Positions 105 to 8,639 of a stretch of 8,639 bases of DNA are shown here, one piece after another. The translations under genes were made by a program, and so were the position numbers. The notes under the pieces were generated by a model. That model made no database searches and was not told the origin of the DNA. It saw nothing but the letters and a program-made list of their open reading frames with translations. This DNA comes from a virus (Duplodnaviria; Heunggongvirae; Uroviricota; Caudoviricetes): the IMG/VR virus record IMGVR_UViG_2534681604_000013; one strand, 5' to 3'. Position 1 is the first letter of the stretch. The number at the start of each line of letters is the position of its first letter.

Positions 105-204
105 CGCCCGCTTTGCGGGGCGGTTTCAATGCAGTTGCACTGACACGCTCAGGCCGCGCCGGGAATGGCGCGGTCTGCAGAAAATGAGGCAGGAAAACGC
201 ATGC

Positions 205-238
205 AAAGCCATGCACCTTATCGATGCATGGCTTTTTT
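205..238. terminator. Intrinsic terminator-like hairpin downstream of psu
   Basis: Perfect 11-bp inverted repeat AAAGCCATGCA (205-215) / TGCATGGCTTT (225-235) with a 9-nt loop. On the plus strand it runs straight into a T-run (233-238); on the minus strand it is followed by GCGTTTTCC. Could terminate the late operon or a transcript entering from the left. Confidence 0.6.
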
Positions 239-389
239 CAGTAAAACGGGCGGATTTTCGGGGAATTTTACACAGACTGATGTGATGCCAGTTGCGCACT
301 TTTACGCGAAAAAATCATGTTCTGCGCAGGGGTGAATTTTTCACGGCTGTCATCCACCGAAGCCGCGTCAGGCCTGAATCCGATGGTCG

Positions 390-839
390 TTAAAATGTCA
401 CTATCCTGTGCGGAATAATTAATTTTTCCCCCTTCGCAAGCCAGGACAGAAGGGCTTCACGCAGGGCATCTGTGGCACGCTGTATGGCACAGTTTCGGGC
501 AATGGCCGTCAGCTCACTGTATCCCATCAGCTCCGGTGCCAGTGCCGCCGCCAGTGCTGTGCCGTGCTGCTGCATAAAATCATTCAGCCGGTCGCGGATG
601 CTGATGTGCTGAACGGCTTCATGCGAACGAATATAACGACCGGCGGCCTGATTCACCTGCCATTTTCTGACTTCGATAATATTGCGTAATTCGTCCAGGC
701 GACTGACGTTTCTGCCTTCCCCGGACAGAAGCCGCAGATATTCCTGTTCGGCCGCAGCCAGCTCATTTTTGCGTTGCAGCCATGCTGCTTTGTTATTCTG
801 ACAGGTGTCAAAGGCCTGCTGTAAGGCTGTGCTCTCCAT
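390..839 (-). CDS. psu: Psu (polarity suppression / capsid decoration protein), C-terminally truncated to 149 aa by a frameshift
   Basis: 149-aa ORF, last gene of the sid-delta-psu late operon. A -1 frame continues the reading to a stop at 268-270, giving 190 aa, the length I recall for P4 Psu. The frame change maps to the homopolymer T5C5 at 423-432. Confidence 0.85.
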   Translation of the reverse strand: MESTALQQAFDTCQNNKAAWLQRKNELAAAEQEYLRLLSGEGRNVSRLDELRNIIEVRKWQVNQAAGRYIRSHEAVQHISIRDRLNDFMQQHGTALAAALAPELMGYSELTAIARNCAIQRATDALREALLSWLAKGEKLIIPHRIVTF

Positions 840-912
840 CGTTATCTCTTTCTCATCATGCTGAAGAATAAAAATACGGTGTGCGGCGACGGCCGGGGTT
901 AACCGGCAGCCC

Positions 913-1413
913 TCATTCCAGACGCAGCGAATATGATTGTGTTTTTAACCGTACTGGCGGCAGTTCCTGTTTTTCATGCAGGCGTTCTGCCAGTTCGTCC
1001 GGCGTGACCGGGCGGACAATGAAGCGGTTGATGGTCTGAAGCGTTTTAAACACCAGACCACAGCCCGGATCCGTGCACACATAAAAACGCTCGGTGACTT
1101 CCTGAGACAGACGCCGCGATGTTCTTGACAGTGCAAGGCCTTTACATCTCCGACAACAATATCCGGTAACAAGCATTCTTTTCGGGCGTTTCATACTGCC
1201 GGAGGCTGACGTCAGTGAATCGCGGTATCTCTGTTTGCCTGAAATGTATTCCATTCCTGAATCTTTACAGTCAGAGAAAAAGCTTTCACTCGCTTCAAAT
1301 GTCGCAGAGCAATAAATATTCCGGCACTGTGCAATCATTATCTTGGTGCCATCGTCCATGAAATGTGCGCGACGGGTGTGAGCAACATGTCCACACGACG
1401 GGCAGTAAATCAT
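913..1413 (-). CDS. delta: Delta: late-gene transcriptional activator, tandem Ogr-like zinc-finger protein (166 aa)
   Basis: Two Ogr-like halves, each with paired Cys motifs: CPSCGH...CRNIYC in the first half and CCRRC...CTDPGC in the second. 166 aa matches P4 delta. Start ATG overlaps the sid stop as ATGA (1410-1413). Confidence 0.9.
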   Translation of the reverse strand: MIYCPSCGHVAHTRRAHFMDDGTKIMIAQCRNIYCSATFEASESFFSDCKDSGMEYISGKQRYRDSLTSASGSMKRPKRMLVTGYCCRRCKGLALSRTSRRLSQEVTERFYVCTDPGCGLVFKTLQTINRFIVRPVTPDELAERLHEKQELPPVRLKTQSYSLRLE

Positions 1414-2144
1414 GACAGCAGTCCTCTGGCCTTAAGCTCTGCACCCTGCTGGTCTATTTTGTCCTGCCACACCTTGCGCTGTGCCGGTGTGCCTGCCACC
1501 TCATAATCCATGTGCGGGAGTGTTGCCGCTGACAGTCCGGTCAGCCGGAGAACCGGCTCGCCGGTGAGGCTGATTTGCATCTGTTTAATTTTCTGTTCCA
1601 GCGATGATTTCACCTGCTGCATGACAGCCTTTTCCGGTGCGACGTAGCCCTGATGCCCGGTGGTGTTGGCGAGCGGATTTTCCTGTACCAGGATACTCAG
1701 ATGCATTGCCCGGACAAGCGCCTCACAGGTTTCATTCAGGGCGTGTTCCAGCTCATGCTCTGCATACAGACTCAGAAGGTGATGATGTGCCTTCCGGTAG
1801 GCGGTGGCCGTGCTGTCACACGCCCCTTTCAGGCGTTCGCGTTCAAAATTCAGCACCACGGCCAGATTGTCATATTCCTGTACCAGCTCCCGGCGTGCCA
1901 CGCGCTCAATGTGGCGCTGTTTCAGCTCGTCGCTCAGGACACCACCGGCTGCACGAAAGGCCGTGCGCCAGTCGTCAGCGTCGTTTCCGTCGGCCTGCGT
2001 CAGCGCATTTTTTTCCTGCTCTGCCCGTTCAATGGCCGTGACGGTCTCATCCATCAGGCGGGCATTCTCAAGGTGGGCGGCTCTGGCCTTTTCCAGTTGT
2101 GCCAGTGCGGGTTGCAGATATTCAGGGATGGTGTGGTCAGACAT
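1410..2144 (-). CDS. sid: Sid: external scaffold / capsid size-determination protein (244 aa from the internal Met)
   Basis: The six-frame ORF runs 1410..2210 (266 aa), but the Met at 2144 (MSDHTIPEY...) has a GAGGAG Shine-Dalgarno 7 nt upstream and gives 244 aa, the P4 Sid length as I recall it. Starting at 2210 would place the TGT-N12-ACA dyads inside the gene. Confidence 0.85.
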   Translation of the reverse strand: MSDHTIPEYLQPALAQLEKARAAHLENARLMDETVTAIERAEQEKNALTQADGNDADDWRTAFRAAGGVLSDELKQRHIERVARRELVQEYDNLAVVLNFERERLKGACDSTATAYRKAHHHLLSLYAEHELEHALNETCEALVRAMHLSILVQENPLANTTGHQGYVAPEKAVMQQVKSSLEQKIKQMQISLTGEPVLRLTGLSAATLPHMDYEVAGTPAQRKVWQDKIDQQGAELKARGLLS

Positions 2145-2178
2145 TTTCCGGCTCCTCGTCACTTCAGGTTGAGAAAAT

Positions 2179-2234
2179 TGTGACGTACACCGGACAACAA
2201 CACGACGCATTGCAGATGTGCCAGCCCTGACACA
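2179..2234 (-). promoter_or_regulatory. Psid-like late promoter region with two TGT-N12-ACA dyads (Delta/Ogr-type activator sites)
   Basis: TGT(2217-2219)-N12-ACA(2232-2234) is centred about 81 bp upstream of the sid ATG, consistent with a -55 activator site if the transcript starts near 2170. A second perfect dyad, TGT(2179-2181)-N12-ACA(2194-2196), lies 38 bp closer to the gene. Confidence 0.6.
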
Positions 2235-2290
2235 GGAGACTCATCCTCAGACCGGCAAGCCAGGAAAAGGTCGCAGGAAAAACCGGCTTA

Positions 2291-2418
2291 CTGTTTGTTT
2301 TTTTATATTTTACTGTTCACCTCTGTTCACCTTAAGAAAAAAGATAATTAATACAGTAAGTTAAAGGGTGAACAATCGCAGTAATGACTGTTCACCGTCT
2401 GTTCACCACTGTTCACCC
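2291..2418. repeat. ori-like iteron cluster: six copies of the P4 type I iteron TGTTCACC in AT-rich context
   Basis: TGTTCACC at 2314-2321, 2324-2331, 2389-2396, 2400-2407, 2410-2417 and its complement GGTGAACA at 2367-2374, flanked by T-rich tracts. The same octamer recurs in the crr about 4.8 kb away, matching the P4 ori/crr arrangement. Confidence 0.8.
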
Positions 2419-2520
2419 GCTCATGGACTTTTTGTGCTGTTTACTACTGTTTGTTTTTATTAATTCGCCGGGAATGAATAAGAAGAAACGATTTGTATTT
2501 CACTATAAAAATTACGAATT

Positions 2521-2550
2521 GCTTTAAGTGGCTTTAAATGACTTTAAGTG
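2521..2550. repeat. Three tandem 10-bp units (CTTTAAGTGG / CTTTAAATGA / CTTTAAGTGG) upstream of the PLL-like promoter
   Basis: Directly visible head-to-tail repeats. Function unknown; possibly a DNA-binding-protein site. Confidence 0.5.
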
Positions 2551-2575
2551 GGAATGAACAAAAAACACACAGTCA

Positions 2576-2650
2576 TTGTAAGGCTGCCGGAACAAATCCC
2601 CCCTGTTGCGTCTGCCAAAAATATTCACAAAATAAAGCGCTACCCGAAGC
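2576..2650 (+). promoter_or_regulatory. PLL-like late promoter for vis, with one TGT-N12-ACA activator dyad
   Basis: TGT(2576-2578)-N12-ACA(2591-2593). A centre at -55 would put the transcript start near 2640, about 57 nt upstream of the vis ATG. A weak TTGCGT -35-like hexamer lies at 2615-2620. Confidence 0.5.
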
Positions 2651-2696
2651 CGGACGGACTTATCCGGTGCTGTATGGACATTAACGAGGTAGCCCG

Positions 2697-2963
2697 ATGC
2701 AAGCTGTTTTTTCTTCCCCGTCTCCCGCCCCTGTGACGCCACTGATGCCGCTGCCGGACATCACGCAGGAGCGTTTTTTACGTCTGCCGGAAGTGATGCA
2801 CCTGTGCGGCCTGTCACGCTCGACCATCTACGAACTCATCCGTAAGGGGGAATTTCCGCCGCAGGTGAGTCTTGGCGGTAAAAATGTGGCCTGGCTGCAC
2901 TCTGAAGTCACCGCATGGATGGCCGGGCGCATCGCCGGACGCAAACGGGGGTACGACGCATGA
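2697..2963 (+). CDS. vis: Vis / AlpA-family helix-turn-helix regulator-excisionase (88 aa)
   Basis: 88 aa, matching P4 orf88 (vis). Core [28 protein letters not shown] is a typical AlpA/Vis HTH segment. GAGG Shine-Dalgarno at 2685-2688. Confidence 0.85.
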
Positions 2964-3550
2964 TGATGCCTGTTCTGCAAAAACACCCTTTTTCTGGCTT
3001 GCCTTTTTCCGGCATTTGCGGATATAGTTTTTCCGCTGTCGCAAAATCGGCAGCCGGGCGTGAGAACCCGAGTATGTTATCGGCGACATATGACGCGCCA
3101 TGCGTCTTTTTTTGTGTCGCAATCAACGCCACAGAGCACCAGATTATGGTGTGGCGTGTGGTTTGCCGTGCAGGTATGATCCTGTTCGCAATCGCATGTT
3201 ATACCTCTGAGTCAATGGTAGCTCAGGCGGGGCAGCCTCCGGGCTGGCCGGTTTCCGATAACGCCGGTATTCTCACCCCCGTCTGGGCTATCGCCATCGA
3301 GCGTGAGAACTCCGGCGATAGCGTCATTTACGCTGTTATCGGAGGTTGCCTTATGGCTATGACCCTTACCCCCTCACACCCTGAATTTGTCTTTGTGTTT
3401 GCGGCTGTCCGTCGCGCAGACCGTCATCCCCGTATCTGCATGCTTCGCACCGTCGCCGGTGATGAACGCAGCGCCCGCCGTTCCCTTGTCCGTGACTATG
3501 TGCTCTCCCTTGCTGCCCGTCTGCCGGTGGTGGAGGTGTCCCGTGCGTAA
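2960..3550 (+). CDS. Hypothetical ORF (196 aa) spanning the predicted immunity region; may not be a real gene
   Basis: Open frame whose ATG overlaps the vis stop (ATGA at 2960-2963), with decent codon structure. But it starts upstream of the predicted PLE, overlaps the putative RNA-immunity elements, and the product is Cys/Trp-rich with no motif I recognise. Confidence 0.25.
2999..3028 (+). promoter_or_regulatory. Sigma70-like promoter TTGCCT-N18-TATAGT, candidate PLE (early/immunity promoter)
   Basis: -35 TTGCCT at 2999-3004 and -10 TATAGT at 3023-3028. It lies about 390 bp downstream of the predicted PLL start, matching the roughly 400-nt PLL-to-PLE spacing described for P4. Confidence 0.5.
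3050..3320 (+). ncRNA. Candidate RNA-immunity leader (P4 CI-RNA / seqA-seqB-seqC-like arrangement)
   Basis: GCGTGAGAAC occurs twice in direct orientation (3058-3067 and 3301-3310). Its partial complement TTCTCAC (3270-3276) lies between them, just downstream of the predicted PLE start. Boundaries are not determinable by eye. Confidence 0.3.
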
Positions 3551-3830
3551 TAAAAAAGCCCCTCAGACCGTCTCAGCGCGTCATGACGCCCGTGAACACC
3601 TCAGCATTGAGGCTTACCATAAGCTCAACCGCGCCAGCGCCGTATCCCAGTTTGTTGGGGGTGATTTGATTCACCGTGAACTCTCCGGCCTGCATCAGCT
3701 CTATATTCCGCATATTTTCAGCTACCTGAATGAAGATATTGATTTTGTGCTGAATGAGCTGAAAGCCAAAGGCCTGTGCCGCGATTTTCTCGCCCAGCAG
3801 AAAGACCGGGGAGACAGGACGCATGTTTGA
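3543..3830 (+). CDS. epsilon: Epsilon-like protein (95 aa with GTG start); P4 epsilon derepresses the helper prophage
   Basis: GTG at 3543 preceded by GGAGG (3532-3536). The reading frame contains no internal Met, so the upstream ATG at 3387 is unlikely to be the start. 95 aa, placed immediately upstream of orf151 as in P4. Stop overlaps the orf151 ATG. Confidence 0.6.
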
Positions 3831-4278
3831 TTTTCCCCAGCCCGGTGAGATTTACCGTTCTGCCGGTTTTCCCGATGTGGCCGTGGTCGGCATTCTGGAA
3901 GACGGTATTCCGTGGGAAATGCCGTACCGCTGCCCGGACATTGTCTGGAATCCGTACCGCCGTAAATTCAGTATCCTTGTGCGTATCCTCGCTGACGGGC
4001 GCACCACAGACATCCCGCTGGGGCGTTTTCTGCGGGAATTTACCTGTGACCGTCCTGACCTGTTCAGACGCAGCCCCGTAAACCGGCATGCGGTACTGAA
4101 AGAAATGGCCGGAGACCCGGAATTACAGAAATGGCGGGAGAAATATCTGGATATTTACCCGCAGGACCCTGTTCCGGTCAGCCGGGCGGCACCGGTGGCG
4201 CGGGAATGGCGGGAAATTCCCCGCACGGAGCCTGACCCGGAAATCACCCCGGATAACAGTTACCGCAATTATCTGTAA
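3823..4278 (+). CDS. P4 orf151-like protein (151 aa), function unknown
   Basis: Size and position match P4 orf151. ATG overlaps the upstream stop (ATGTTTGA). GGAGACAGG ribosome-binding region upstream. Confidence 0.8.
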   Translation: MFDFPQPGEIYRSAGFPDVAVVGILEDGIPWEMPYRCPDIVWNPYRRKFSILVRILADGRTTDIPLGRFLREFTCDRPDLFRRSPVNRHAVLKEMAGDPELQKWREKYLDIYPQDPVPVSRAAPVAREWREIPRTEPDPEITPDNSYRNYL

Positions 4279-4413
4279 TTAAAAAACGACACCCGAAAAA
4301 TTAAATGTGCGTATTCGCGCAGGGATACGCACGTCTTCAGGAGACGCAGATATGCCTTATCAGTTAATGCAACCGGCACAGAATGCAGTCATCTGTCACA
4401 GGGAGGAAAGCAA

Positions 4414-4734
4414 ATGAAAACACCCTTACCGCCCGTCTTACGCGCTGCCCTTTACCGTCGCGCTGTCGCCTGTGCCTGGCTGACCGTGTGCGAACGTCAG
4501 CACCGCTACCCGCATCTCACCCTTGAGTCACTGGAGGCGGCCATCGCCGCTGAGCTGGAGGGCTTTTATCTGCGCCAGCACGGTGAGGAAAAAGGGCGTC
4601 AGATAGCCTGTGCCCTGCTGGAAGATTTAATGGAATCCGGCCCCCTGAAGGCCGCACCGTCGCTGTCCTTTCTCGGGCTGGTTGTGATGGATGAACTCTG
4701 TGCCCGTCACATAAAAGCGCCGGTACTGCACTGA
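4414..4734 (+). CDS. P4 orf106-like protein (106 aa), function unknown
   Basis: Strong Shine-Dalgarno (AGGGAGGAAAG) before the ATG. Size and position match P4 orf106, directly upstream of alpha. Confidence 0.8.
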
Positions 4735-4748
4735 AGGAGAACAACACC

Positions 4749-7082
4749 ATGAAAATGAACGTAACCGCCACCGTCAGCCATGCGCTCGGCCACTGGACGC
4801 GTATTCTCCCGGCGCTGGGGATTCAGGTGCTGAAGAACCGTCATCAGCCCTGTCCGGTCTGTGGCGGGAGTGACCGCTTCCGTTTTGATGACAGGGAGGG
4901 GCGCGGCACCTGGTACTGCAATCAGTGTGGTGCCGGTGACGGCCTGAAACTGGTTGAAAAGGTGTTTGGTGTTTCCCCGTCCGACGCGGCCGCAAAGGTG
5001 GCTGCCGTGACCGGCAGCCTGCCACCGGCTGACCCGGCAGTGACGACCGCCGCCGTTGCTGAAACAGACGCTGCCCGGAAGAACGCCGCCGCACTGGCAC
5101 AAACCCTGATGGCGAAAACCCGTCCCGGAACCGGTAACGCCTACCTGACCCGCAAGGGCTTTCCCGGCCGGGAATGCCGGATGCTGACCGGCACACACAG
5201 AGCCGGTGGCGTGAGCTGGCGCGCCGGTGACCTTGTGGTGCCACTGTATGACGACAGCGGCGAACTGGTTAACCTTCAGTTAATCAGTGCTGACGGCCGT
5301 AAGCGCACCCTGAAAGGCGGACAGGTCAGGGGCACCTGTCACACCCTTGAAGGACAGAATCAGGCCGGAAAACGTCTGTGGATAGCGGAGGGATACGCGA
5401 CCGCACTTACCGTGCATCACCTGACCGGTGAAACGGTAATGGTGGCGCTTTCTTCCGTGAACCTCCTTTCTCTGGCCAGCCTTGCCCGGCAGAAGCATCC
5501 GGCCTGTCAGATTGTCCTTGCCGCAGACCGTGACCTCAGCGGTGACGGCCAGAAAAAAGCCGCCGCAGCCGCAGATGCGTGTGAAGGTGTTGTTGCCCTG
5601 CCGCCGGTCTTCGGTGACTGGAATGATGCCTTCACGCAGTACGGCGGGGAAGCCACCCGTAAGGCCATTTATGATGCCATCCGGCCACCGGCTGAAAGCC
5701 CGTTCGACACCATGAGCGAAGCGGAGTTCTCCGCCATGAGTACCAGCGAAAAGGCCATGCGTATCTATGAGCATTACGGCGAGGCGCTCGCGGTTGATGC
5801 CAACGGCCAGCTTCTGTCCCGTTATGAAAATGGTGTCTGGAAGGTGCTGCCACCACAGGACTTTGCCCGGGATGTGGCCGGGCTGTTTCAGCGTCTGCGC
5901 GCGCCGTTCTCCTCCGGGAAGGTGGCCTCCGTGGTGGACACCCTGAAGCTGATTATTCCGCAGCAGGAAGCCCCCTCCCGCCGCCTGATTGGCTTTCGTA
6001 ACGGCGTGCTCGACACGCAGAACGGCACGTTCCACCCGCACAGTCCGTTACACTGGATGCGCACCCTGTGCGATGTGGATTTCACCCCGCCGGTGGACGG
6101 TGAAACGCTGGAGACCCACGCCCCCGCGTTCTGGCGCTGGCTTGACCGTGCCGCCGGTGGCCGTGCGGAAAAACGCGACGTGATTCTGGCCGCACTGTTT
6201 ATGGTGCTGGCAAACCGCTACGACTGGCAGCTCTTTCTGGAGGTGACCGGTCCCGGCGGCAGCGGCAAAAGTATCATGGCCGAAATAGCCACCCTGCTGG
6301 CCGGGGAGGATAACGCCACGTCGGCCACCATTGAGACGCTGGAATCCCCGCGTGAACGTGCCGCGTTAACTGGCTTCTCACTGATACGCCTGCCGGACCA
6401 GGAAAAATGGAGCGGCGACGGAGCCGGACTCAAGGCCATCACCGGCGGCGATGCAGTGTCCGTTGACCCGAAATACCGGGATGCGTACTCCACGCATATC
6501 CCGGCGGTGATTCTGGCCGTGAACAATAACCCGATGCGCTTCACCGACCGCAGCGGCGGCGTGTCACGCCGGCGGGTGATTATTCACTTCCCGGAACAGA
6601 TAGCCCCGCAGGAGCGCGACCCGCAGCTTAAGGACAAAATCACCCGCGAGCTGGCGGTCATCGTGCGTCACCTGATGCAGAAATTCAGCGACCCGATGCT
6701 CGCCCGGTCACTGCTTCAGTCCCAGCAGAACTCAGACGAGGCGCTGAACATCAAACGGGATGCCGACCCGACGTTTGATTTTATCGGCTATCTGGAAACC
6801 CTGCCGCAGACCAGCGGCATGTATATGGGGAACGCCAGTATCATCCCGCGGAATTACCGTAAATACCTCTATCACGCCTATCTGGCCTACATGGAGGCAA
6901 ACGGCTACCGGAATGTACTCAGTCTGAAAATGTTCGGGCTGGGGCTGCCGGTGATGCTGAAGGAATACGGACTGAATTACGAGAAGCGCCATACCAAACA
7001 GGGGATACAGACCAACCTGACGCTGAAAGAGGAAAGCTACGGCGACTGGCTGCCAAAATGTGACGACCCTGCAACAACCTGA
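4749..7082 (+). CDS. alpha: Alpha: bifunctional DNA primase-helicase with C-terminal origin-binding domain (777 aa)
   Basis: N-terminal zinc motif CPVCGG...CNQCG, a Toprim-like acidic segment (AEGYATALT ... AADRD), and Walker A GPGGSGKS near residue 500. 777 aa equals the P4 alpha length. Strong AAGGAGA ribosome-binding site. Confidence 0.95.
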   Translation: MKMNVTATVSHALGHWTRILPALGIQVLKNRHQPCPVCGGSDRFRFDDREGRGTWYCNQCGAGDGLKLVEKVFGVSPSDAAAKVAAVTGSLPPADPAVTTAAVAETDAARKNAAALAQTLMAKTRPGTGNAYLTRKGFPGRECRMLTGTHRAGGVSWRAGDLVVPLYDDSGELVNLQLISADGRKRTLKGGQVRGTCHTLEGQNQAGKRLWIAEGYATALTVHHLTGETVMVALSSVNLLSLASLARQKHPACQIVLAADRDLSGDGQKKAAAAADACEGVVALPPVFGDWNDAFTQYGGEATRKAIYDAIRPPAESPFDTMSEAEFSAMSTSEKAMRIYEHYGEALAVDANGQLLSRYENGVWKVLPPQDFARDVAGLFQRLRAPFSSGKVASVVDTLKLIIPQQEAPSRRLIGFRNGVLDTQNGTFHPHSPLHWMRTLCDVDFTPPVDGETLETHAPAFWRWLDRAAGGRAEKRDVILAALFMVLANRYDWQLFLEVTGPGGSGKSIMAEIATLLAGEDNATSATIETLESPRERAALTGFSLIRLPDQEKWSGDGAGLKAITGGDAVSVDPKYRDAYSTHIPAVILAVNNNPMRFTDRSGGVSRRRVIIHFPEQIAPQERDPQLKDKITRELAVIVRHLMQKFSDPMLARSLLQSQQNSDEALNIKRDADPTFDFIGYLETLPQTSGMYMGNASIIPRNYRKYLYHAYLAYMEANGYRNVLSLKMFGLGLPVMLKEYGLNYEKRHTKQGIQTNLTLKEESYGDWLPKCDDPATT

Positions 7083-7098
7083 CCCTCATGACTCATCT

Positions 7099-7123
7099 GA
7101 CCGGCATCTGCCGGTCTTTTTTT
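7099..7123 (+). terminator. Rho-independent terminator after alpha
   Basis: Stem GACCGG (7099-7104) / CCGGTC (7111-7116) followed by T7 (7117-7123), 17 nt past the alpha stop. Confidence 0.8.
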
Positions 7124-7136
7124 ATCCCTGAATCCC

Positions 7137-7438
7137 CCGAAGGTGAACAATCCACTGTTCACCCTTCACCGTATGTTCACCCGTTATCACACTGAAATTA
7201 AAAGAGAAAAACGAAAGGTGAACAGTGTGAACAATCAAATCAAAAAAAACTTTTTTCTCCCTGTGTGATTTCAGTGCGGAGGATTAATCACCGGTATGAG
7301 TCACACCGGCAGAATGCCGGAGGTGAAGAATCGAATGTTCACCCTTCACCCACTATTCACCACCTATCATACTGAAATAAAAGGAGAAAAAAGAAAGGTG
7401 AACAGTGTGAACAGTTCTTTCGAAAAAAAATTTTTTTC
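7137..7438. repeat. crr (cis replication region): two ~122-bp direct repeats with a 180-bp period, each carrying TGTTCACC/GGTGAACA iterons and an A8-T6/7 tract
   Basis: Repeat 1 about 7137-7258 and repeat 2 about 7317-7438 align with roughly 85-90% identity. Iterons include GGTGAACA at 7142-7149 and 7217-7224 and TGTTCACC at 7155-7162 and 7173-7180. Matches the P4 crr description of two 120-bp repeats separated by about 60 bp. Confidence 0.85.
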
Positions 7439-7575
7439 CTGTACGATATAGCATCAATCCAAGTAAAAATGCGCTTTAATTTCACATTAACTTACAGCCA
7501 TTGGTATACAATTAGGTATACGCACAAAAACTGAATTAAACAAAATCGTTAAAAATCAAAGCAATATAATATTTA

Positions 7576-7595
7576 TTCAAACTCCGCCAGCCCCA
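7576..7595 (+). other. Possible attachment-site remnant resembling the 3' end of tmRNA (ssrA)
   Basis: TTCAAACTCCGCCAGCCCCA resembles the tmRNA 3' end GGGTTCAACTCCCGCCAGCTCCACCA as I recall it (about 18 of 23 positions, with indels). It lies 136 bp past crr, where the int-distal junction of a P4-type prophage is expected. Weak evidence. Confidence 0.3.
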
Positions 7596-7639
7596 AAATT
7601 CTCCATCGGTGATTACCAGAGTCATCCGATGAAGTCCTG

Positions 7640-7675
7640 AAAGCCCGCATGGCGCAAGCCCTGCGGGCTTTTTTG
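7640..7675 (+). terminator. Rho-independent terminator
   Basis: Stem GCCCGCA (7643-7649) / TGCGGGC (7662-7668) followed by T6 (7669-7674). Preceded by a second hairpin, CATCGG (7604-7609) / CCGATG (7626-7631). Could be the trailer of the host gene targeted by the prophage. Confidence 0.65.
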
Positions 7676-8082
7676 TGCCTTCAATTTGTCTCGCAAAATC
7701 TCAAGCAAACTAATTTATTCTGAACTTTTTAAGCCCATTGTCAGTCCCAACGAAAAGAACCATCGTTTTCATTGGGTCTAAAAGCATGGAGACGACTCAT
7801 GGCAATGACGCTCCTCTGGAACATCAGAAAAAACAGCGAGAAACTCCCATGAGGCCAATACCAACACTTTCTGTTAGTTGCCGAGCGTAGGTGGAATGTA
7901 AAGAAAGACAGAGCCATAGAAGTGTGTGCTGACGATATTTCGCACTCATAAAATAAATCAAATGGATACGCGAAAGCGTAGCCTTTTTCTTGGGCTGTGG
8001 CGGCAAAATGGCGACAGCGAATTTGAGTAGTGACAATAAAGAACCATGTAATGCGGATTGCGACTGATGACAAATGCAAATT

Positions 8083-8108
8083 GCCTGATGCGCTACGCTT
8101 ATCAGGCC
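8083..8108. repeat. REP (repetitive extragenic palindrome) element
   Basis: GCCTGATGCGCTACGCTTATCAGGCC matches the enterobacterial REP consensus. A partial second copy (CCCGCATCCGGC) lies at 8169-8180. Indicates chromosomal intergenic DNA. Confidence 0.8.
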
Positions 8109-8332
8109 GACTAACCTCCTGAAATGCATTGTATTTTATTGACATTTCAGGACGAACAAAACATTTACCCCGCATCCGGCAGTAACAATGCGCAATTTAT
8201 CAAGAATCTGAACCCGCGTATTGCGAATTCAGTCTGCTTATGCGGACAAAAATATAATCCTCAAACTCTACCGTTCTCACATCATTGATGATGTAGGCGT
8301 GCATCTGAATAGTAGATGCGAAGTGCCATATC

Positions 8333-8381
8333 TTGAATACTGGTTAGAAATACAGTATAAAAACTGTATATACGTCCAGTT
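8333..8381 (+). promoter_or_regulatory. SOS-regulated promoter: TTGAAT-N17-TATAAA with two LexA boxes
   Basis: LexA box 1 TACTGGTTAGAAATACAGTA (8338-8357) overlaps the spacer and -10. LexA box 2 AACTGTATATACGTCCAGTT (8362-8381) sits at the expected transcript start. Both fit CTG-N10-CAG. AAGAGG ribosome-binding site at 8382-8387. Confidence 0.7.
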
Positions 8382-8396
8382 AAGAGGCAATGCGCA

Positions 8397-8639
8397 ATGT
8401 TCGTGGAACTCGTTTATGACAAAAGGAATTTTGATGGTCTGCCTGGTGCAAAAGAGATCATTTTAGATGAACTGAGTAAGAGAGTGCACCGGATCTTCCC
8501 GGATGCAGATGTCCGGGTTAAACCGATGATGACACTGCCAGCGATTAACACGGATGCCAGCAAACATGAGAAAGAGCGGATAAGTGCCGTCGTTCAGGAA
8601 ATGTTCGAAGAAGCGGAATTCTGGCTGGTAAGTGAGTGA
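8397..8639 (+). CDS. DinI-family protein (79 aa), MsgA/DinI-like SOS-inducible regulator
   Basis: MFVELVYDKRN...FWLVSE has the DinI-family architecture and the characteristic acidic C-terminus ending W(F/L)VSE. Compare E. coli DinI MRIEVTIAK...DWFVSE. Complete ORF with its stop at the window end. Confidence 0.85.
   Translation: MFVELVYDKRNFDGLPGAKEIILDELSKRVHRIFPDADVRVKPMMTLPAINTDASKHEKERISAVVQEMFEEAEFWLVSE

Follow-up and report, generated by a model that had tools for sequence, protein, structure and literature searches.

Probable damaged attR of a P4-like satellite at the ssrA 3′ end, in tandem with the remnant of an older CP4-57-type island

Background

Excision of the island CP4-57 leaves an ssrA gene that lacks T357/U and is inactive (Onodera et al. 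2022, PMC10107115), and excision of CP4So in Shewanella leads to the same tmRNA inactivation (Zeng et al. 2016, PMC5148205). Lesions after CGCCAGC, of the forms -CCACCA, ----CCA and -----CA, were reported in the attR sites of ssrA islands from several genera (PMC10107115 Table 1, citing Williams 2003). Loss of U357, as well as the other lesions tested, abolishes trans-translation, with ribosome rescue switching to ArfA, and the larger attR lesions (-----CA and ----CCA) also inactivate tmRNA (PMC10107115). P4-like satellites with swapped integration modules, ssrA as a much-used integration site, tandem islands and damaged attR sites that inactivate tmRNA on excision have all been described before, and the attR of a P4-like satellite at ssrA beside an older island is an already known, ordinary arrangement in Escherichia coli.

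Here we describe one such junction. The DNA analysed, referred to below as the window, is a stretch of 8,639 nt from a Caudoviricetes record in IMG/VR (IMGVR_UViG_2534681604_000013). A first-pass annotation had pointed to a 20-mer resembling the tmRNA 3′ end, followed by a hairpin and an intrinsic terminator, as the possible int-distal junction of an ssrA-integrated element, and had allowed that the imperfect match might be a decayed site or a coincidence. We consider it very probable that a P4-like satellite has integrated in the ssrA 3′ end, in tandem with an older CP4-57-type remnant, and that 7437–7595 is its int-distal junction, attR.

Results

The satellite body and the end of its homology to P4

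From the cos end through crr (window 105–7436, ~7.3 kb), the DNA is 97.5% identical to phage P4 (X51522 / NC_001609). The genes follow the P4 order, namely psu, delta, sid, the immunity region, epsilon, alpha and crr, with ori also in its P4 place, and Rfam matches to C4, c4-a1b1 and isrK were detected in the immunity region. All the hallmarks of a P4-like satellite were therefore found in P4 order (alpha, crr, ori, sid-delta-psu, epsilon and the CI/C4 immunity RNA). Homology to P4 stops at 7436, with the second of the two 120-bp direct repeats that make up crr (7137–7256 and 7317–7436), and this end at crr shows that the whole int/att module was exchanged relative to P4. An AlpA/Vis-like gene of the element lies at 2697–2963. 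The features from alpha to the right flank are as follows.

4749–7082, + strand: alpha primase-helicase gene (777-aa ORF with Pfam primase/D5 domains), the last gene before the junction
7099–7116, + strand: t-alpha intrinsic terminator, found by the terminator scan and equal to the annotated P4 terminator 4604–4628
7137–7436, no strand assigned: crr, the cis-required replication region, homologous to P4 crr 4291–4590
7437–7583, + strand: P arm of attR, element-borne and specific to ssrA-targeting P4-like satellites, with no P4 match
7500–7521, + strand: a tandem pair of putative arm-type sites for the integrase, ATTGGTATAC and TTAGGTATAC, set 12 bp apart (GGTATAC repeats)
7584–7591, + strand: att core CCGCCAGC, the probable strand-exchange region, from the attL/attR alignment
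7592–7595, + strand: CCCA, the damaged remnant of the last 7 nt of ssrA (TCCACCA), from the ssrA alignment, locus L042 and 37 junctions
7596–7798, + strand: trailer of ssrA, apparently displaced, and the region upstream of int, both from an older CP4-57-type island and 84% identical to the K-12 DNA from the ssrA CCA end to intA
7799–7947, + strand: integrase pseudogene remnant of the older island, by blastn to K-12 intA and to the integrase pseudogene of E. coli 382634_2f
7950–8020, + strand: third ssrA-trailer-type module, with a small terminator-like hairpin (7967–7980) and without the ssrA core, by terminator scan and homology

The psu gene (390–839, − strand) encodes a product identical to P4 Psu through residue 139, after which a frameshift near position 420 gives 149 aa instead of 190 aa, while a relative (L009) has all 190 aa. 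A satellite with this psu may lack polarity suppression. With psu frameshifted (~codon 140), the satellite may also be defective in part, and productive excision may never take place.

The int-proximal end at ssrA

An exact match to the alpha protein led to locus L008 (NCBI draft contig GL870860.1, GCA_000190495.1), of which 5253–13891 is identical to the window. The ratA-smpB-ssrA region of L008 shows 98.7% identity to K-12, so the contig comes from E. coli or something very closely related. The order on L008 is smpB, ssrA (1029–1391), int (1576–2769), two cargo genes, psu, delta, sid and so on to alpha, crr and attR. The ssrA gene, ~4 kb to the left of the window, is complete (ARAGORN; tag ANDENYALAA), and its trailer at attL is element-borne, with AATAATGA, a small hairpin and a terminator. 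The integrase has 397 aa with Arm-DNA-bind_3, Phage_int_M and Phage_integrase domains, and is 61% identical to IntA of K-12 (the CP4-57 integrase) and 36% to P4 Int. The int-proximal end thus carries a full target gene with an adjoining integrase, which is the arrangement looked for in RNA-gene integration by a P4-subfamily integrase. In E. coli S1-INA-02-A, whose genome is complete, an element with 97% identity has the same layout, and there ssrA and the integrase are annotated.

These findings bear on several proposals of the first-pass annotation. It had proposed to look for a repeat of the junction segment beside an integrase beyond the left edge, where ssrA and a P4-subfamily int indeed lie, and it had named a different tRNA at the other end as the observation that would speak against an ssrA-integrated element; that end abuts ssrA. 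Its remark that no integrase follows crr holds for the element's own int, which is absent there because integration at attP moves int to the other prophage end, but not for the DNA as a whole, since a remnant of an older IntA-type integrase lies at 7799–7947. The tRNA-Leu site that it gave for P4 is correct (leuX).

At L008 2797–5252, where P4 has gop-beta-cII, we identified two cargo genes, whose products are a HAD-family hydrolase of 279 aa and a 537-aa Pua-like/metallophosphatase protein; the S1-INA-02-A relative has two other hypothetical genes in this slot. The slot, between int and psu/cos, is known in P4-like satellites as a variable (defence) hotspot. The attL and attR terminators of this genome (L008 1420–1465 and window 7636–7677) share ~45 nt that are nearly identical, with one mismatch, and this direct repeat could support a RecA-dependent, integrase-independent loss of the satellite.

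Arm, core and damaged end of attR

The 20-mer TTCAAACTCCGCCAGCCCCA occupies 7576–7595 exactly, as had been reported, and the 3′ end of ssrA in the same genome, which the first-pass annotation had proposed to align with it, reads GGGTTCAACTCCCGCCAGCTCCACCA (L008 1029–1391) and matches. The two have in common a T-loop-like TTCAA and the exact 8-mer CCGCCAGC, and the fragment ends in CCCA where ssrA has TCCACCA, so that the attR sequence runs ...ATATTTATTCAAACTCCGCCAGC-CCCA-AAATTCTCCATCGG... The alignment extends further in K-12: window 7580–7805 matched the last 20 nt of ssrA and the ssrA-intA spacer up to the intA start (230 nt, 84%, E = 2e-62, 28 Gb searched). The likeness of the fragment to a tmRNA end is far beyond chance. 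On the other hand, no complete tRNA or tmRNA gene was detected in the window by ARAGORN or Rfam, and the full tRNA-like domain and the tag reading frame of tmRNA are absent from it, leaving just ~20 nt of 3′-end-like sequence.

The P arm to the left of the core shows 97% identity to the P4-like elements that other E. coli carry at ssrA, and its homology always stops at ~7593, whatever the right-hand sequence. The 10-mers of its two putative arm-type sites recur in the P′ arm directly upstream of int, as two direct and two inverted copies (L008 1503–1556), and the 22-kb locus has one further copy of GGTATAC/GTATACC elsewhere. By analogy with the P4 attP layout, these 10-mers are candidate arm-type integrase sites.

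The P arm ends in the imperfect T-loop-like TTCAAACT (7576–7583), where ssrA has TTCAACTC, and this left part never was a copy of the host's ssrA but belongs to the element. To its right lies CCGCCAGC, 8 bp long, the only block identical in attL (inside ssrA) and attR; the exact direct repeat at the distal junction is limited to it, and the remainder is imperfect or damaged. The match to ssrA is thus imperfect because its left part is element-borne and its right part is a damaged copy of TCCACCA. This is the typical damaged attR of ssrA-specific P4-subfamily integrases, rather than the coincidence or decayed site that had been allowed for.

The crossover likely lies within CCGCCAGC, by analogy with the published excision products of CP4-57; we place it to the left of T357 because those products lose T357. 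We also considered a crossover at the terminal CCA, by which the short attR end would be element-borne, and rejected it, as the excision products of CP4-57 and CP4So lose T357/U and the junction in locus L020 keeps the full TCCACCA. No one simple left-anchored deletion turns TCCACCA into CCCA, which could have arisen by loss of T and of AC, or by a T to C change and loss of CCA.

After the fragment, the predicted hairpin and intrinsic terminator were both recovered (7604–7674), as a hairpin at 7604–7631 and a G+C-rich stem with a T run at 7639–7674. The region folded with an MFE of −38.2 kcal/mol (z = −4.6), equalled by 0 of 200 shuffles, and the terminator scan also picked up the site.

Older island debris to the right of attR

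The 7596–7798 segment consists of this hairpin, the intrinsic terminator and a spacer up to the start of an integrase gene. What follows is a pseudogene remnant with an ATG at 7799–7801, a ~250 bp internal deletion after 7805 and a frameshifted part at 7812–7947, after which it is truncated. The ~135 bp of 7812–7947 correspond to about residues 88–133 of IntA (tblastn, 17/24 and 9/13 identities in two frames). A second, CP4-57-type layer is thus left with its trailer and int-upstream region at 84% and, of its integrase, just the ATG and the frameshifted ~135 bp, and is a remnant rather than a functional island. In E. coli 382634_2f, which is 98% identical over window 2900–7805, a nearly full-length integrase pseudogene occupies the same place.

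In the unoccupied E. coli site, the ssrA end TCCACCA is directly followed by ATCATGATTGGACGG, and the native trailer is ATCATGATTGG. Strains that lack the element had been proposed as a comparison, and the reconstructed empty site, with TCCACCA followed by ATCATGATTGG, occurs with 100% identity, and at least 80% of its length is covered in 2528 of the 5426 complete E. coli genomes. Some 1100 complete E. coli genomes bear islands at ssrA. The native trailer is also present at the far end of CP4-57 in K-12. The hairpin and terminator in the window are therefore very probably an ssrA trailer supplied by the older CP4-57-type island, and not native chromosome.

The third module (7950–8020) is ~85% identical to the sequence after the ssrA CCA end in L021 and after attR in L019 and L062. 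Judged by its sequence, the locus is layered: a P4-like satellite that looks intact is stacked with the CP4-57-type remnant, and one more layer has left a trace. None of the 5426 complete E. coli genomes covers the junction with its right flank, and both 7948 to ~8325 and the sugar/dihydroxyacetone gene cluster that lies beyond the window in L008 are absent from these genomes.

An ORF of 144 aa on the minus strand (7741–8175) spans the integrase remnant, the third trailer-type module and a REP repeat, and was rejected as spurious. The REP/BIME-like repeat (8035–8220, including GCCTGATGCGCTACGCTTATCAGGCC) occurs at 12–45 places per complete E. coli genome with ~71% identity. At 8341–8379 and 8397–8639 lie two LexA-box-like sequences, CTGGTTAGAAATACAG and CTGTATATACGTCCAG, and, after them, an 80-aa DinI-family gene (Pfam DinI) that is 86% identical to the DinI-like prophage genes of E. 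coli Nissle.

Lesions in related attR junctions

We surveyed 37 junctions bearing the P arm, drawn from viral contigs and the loci compared in the analysis. TCCACCA was kept in 1 junction and CCACCA, without the T, in 13, while the other 23 showed larger losses (CCCA, CCA, CA, up to 11 nt). Losses lie just to the right of CCGCCAGC in 36 of the 37 junctions and to its left in none (0/37). The junctions span five downstream contexts and at least a dozen lesion states. The CCCA state of the window recurs independently in L069, before the native trailer, and the closely related prophage contig L042 has CCACCA between the same flanks as the window (99% over the 461 nt compared).

As the first junction pattern required an intact core, we asked whether the pattern itself had produced the constant left edge of the lesions as an artefact. 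The rescan, with an arm pattern 26 nt upstream that did not require the core, gave no leftward lesions, and the artefact was rejected: TTCAAACTCCGCCAGC was intact in every P4-like match, so the lesions do lie only to the right of the core.

Just 3′ of CCGCCAGC in attR, the ssrA-specific P4-subfamily integrase might maintain an active hot spot of polar mutation, an idea that we put forward tentatively and hold to be rather doubtful. Such a hot spot could come about, for example, if the integrase cleaved abortively at the right-hand edge of the overlap region. If it were true, the satellite would progressively make its own excision a tmRNA-killing switch, which would penalise cells that lose the satellite. 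Integrase-promoted att damage as such is already in the literature; the Williams 2003 abstract reportedly says that the ssrA-specific P4-subfamily integrase seems to cause damage routinely at its attachment sites.

When genome contigs were scanned with the junction pattern, the sole match was a Kosakonia oryzendophytica contig (NZ_FMAY01000012.1, L007), in which 3867–4118 holds TTCAAACTCCGCCAGC-CCACCA and a CP4-57-type trailer beside a P4-like alpha (79% identical). The module that targets ssrA thus also occurs outside Escherichia. In L033 (941–1000), the attR reads CCGCCAGC-CCA-AATAATGATTGGACGG and looks like a hybrid in which an element-borne trailer (AATAATGAT...) passes at ATGAT into the native one (ATCATGATTGG); this may be a scar left when a neighbouring element was lost by illegitimate deletion.

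Alternative readings of the junction

Just 8 contiguous bases of the 20-mer are identical to ssrA and neither ARAGORN nor Rfam found a tmRNA in the window, so one could hold that the 20-mer resembles ssrA by chance or is a decayed site unrelated to the integration of the element. We give this next to no credence, as in this genome the element's other end has ssrA followed by an integrase, the K-12 homology does not stop at the fragment but continues into the ssrA trailer over 230 nt (E = 2e-62), and the element arm ends at exactly this point in dozens of genomes with five right-hand contexts. If the junction is accepted, everything to the right of 7595 could still be native chromosome downstream of ssrA, with a single element and no tandem array. 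In many E. coli the same trailer is indeed conserved after ssrA, in some of them with no annotated intA (H64–H70), and it also flanks a Klebsiella prophage record. However, the unoccupied site has the different trailer ATCATGATTGG in genomes that make up nearly half of those searched (the 2528 of 5426 with at least 80% coverage), and in K-12 this trailer is found again where CP4-57 has its far end. In the window, moreover, remains of an IntA-type integrase (its start and one fragment) follow the trailer, where E. coli 382634_2f has its nearly full-length pseudogene, and a purely native right flank is thus very unlikely.

The hairpin and terminator could also be read as a small RNA gene, since 7618–7674 matched IsrM (RF02763) in Rfam with E = 6e-6 at a permissive threshold, the only match there apart from the P4 immunity RNAs. 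The match scored 31.6 bits, while the gathering score is 376, and only the first 8 and last ~47 positions of the 329-nt model align, with 274 internal positions missing. What the two have in common is the terminator module found with the ssrA trailers of this island family, and no promoter-like site was found on the + strand in 7000–8639. An IsrM-like gene in place of a displaced terminator is therefore extremely improbable, and we keep to the reading of 7437–7595 as the attR of the satellite beside an older trailer. The terminator module after ssrA trailers, which reads AAGTCTACTAAGCCCGCACAGCACAAGCTCTGCGGGCTTTTTT in several loci, is nearly identical to the consensus 3′ end of Salmonella IsrM; besides window 7618–7674, it was seen in L021, L047, L057, L066 and L076. 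This similarity suggests that the Salmonella IsrM ends in a displaced ssrA-island terminator.

Discussion

A model of the locus

In the arrangement that we favour, the satellite carries an ssrA-specific int/att module in place of the leuX-specific one of P4. Its 397-aa integrase would bind the GGTATAC arm-type sites on both arms and exchange strands within CCGCCAGC. On integration, the element supplied ssrA at attL with a new end (TCCACCA), trailer hairpin and terminator, and displaced the old ssrA end, trailer and terminator to attR, where they appear as the tmRNA-like fragment, the hairpin and the terminator. The displaced trailer came from an earlier CP4-57-type island, since cut down to its trailer, its int-upstream region and a ~150-bp integrase remnant; with such an older trailer at attR, the locus is therefore a tandem array.

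Excision through CCGCCAGC would leave an ssrA that ends in ...GCCAGCCCCAAAA. The resulting tmRNA, without the G3.U357 pair and the encoded CCA, would be expected to be inactive, and loss of the satellite would therefore be costly.

For annotation, the right boundary of the satellite is fixed at 7591–7595, 7596–8020 is to be taken as island debris and not as core chromosome, and the partial IsrM match is explained. The locus adds a further instance of island stacking at ssrA with a damaged attR, at which excision would inactivate tmRNA and shift rescue to ArfA.

Comparison with known systems

P4 itself has its attP core ~200 bp past crr, followed by int. The order alpha, crr and att is shared with the element described here, as is the design of attP, with tandem arm repeats that flank a core from the 3′ end of an RNA gene. 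In contrast, P4 integrates at a tRNA-Leu gene (leuX) with a 20-bp core, and its Int is just 36% identical to that of the element.

CP4-57 of K-12 (ssrA-intA ... attR before ypjA) shares the ssrA 3′ end as target and the core CCGCCAGC. In its attR, too, the T-loop-like left part is imperfect in the same way (TTCAGACTCC; the window has TTCAAACTCC) and the copy of the ssrA end is damaged, to CCACCA. Identity between the integrases is 61%, and the trailer, terminator and int-upstream region at the left end of CP4-57 are 84% identical to window 7596–7805. On the other hand, the element here is a true P4-type satellite with alpha, crr, sid, delta, psu and the CI RNA, the CP4-57-type island beside it is just a ~350-bp remnant, and the damage is larger (CCCA). 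The published stacked ssrA islands with damaged attR sites are of the same kind as this locus, which adds the lesion state CCCA and has a P4 satellite as its youngest layer.
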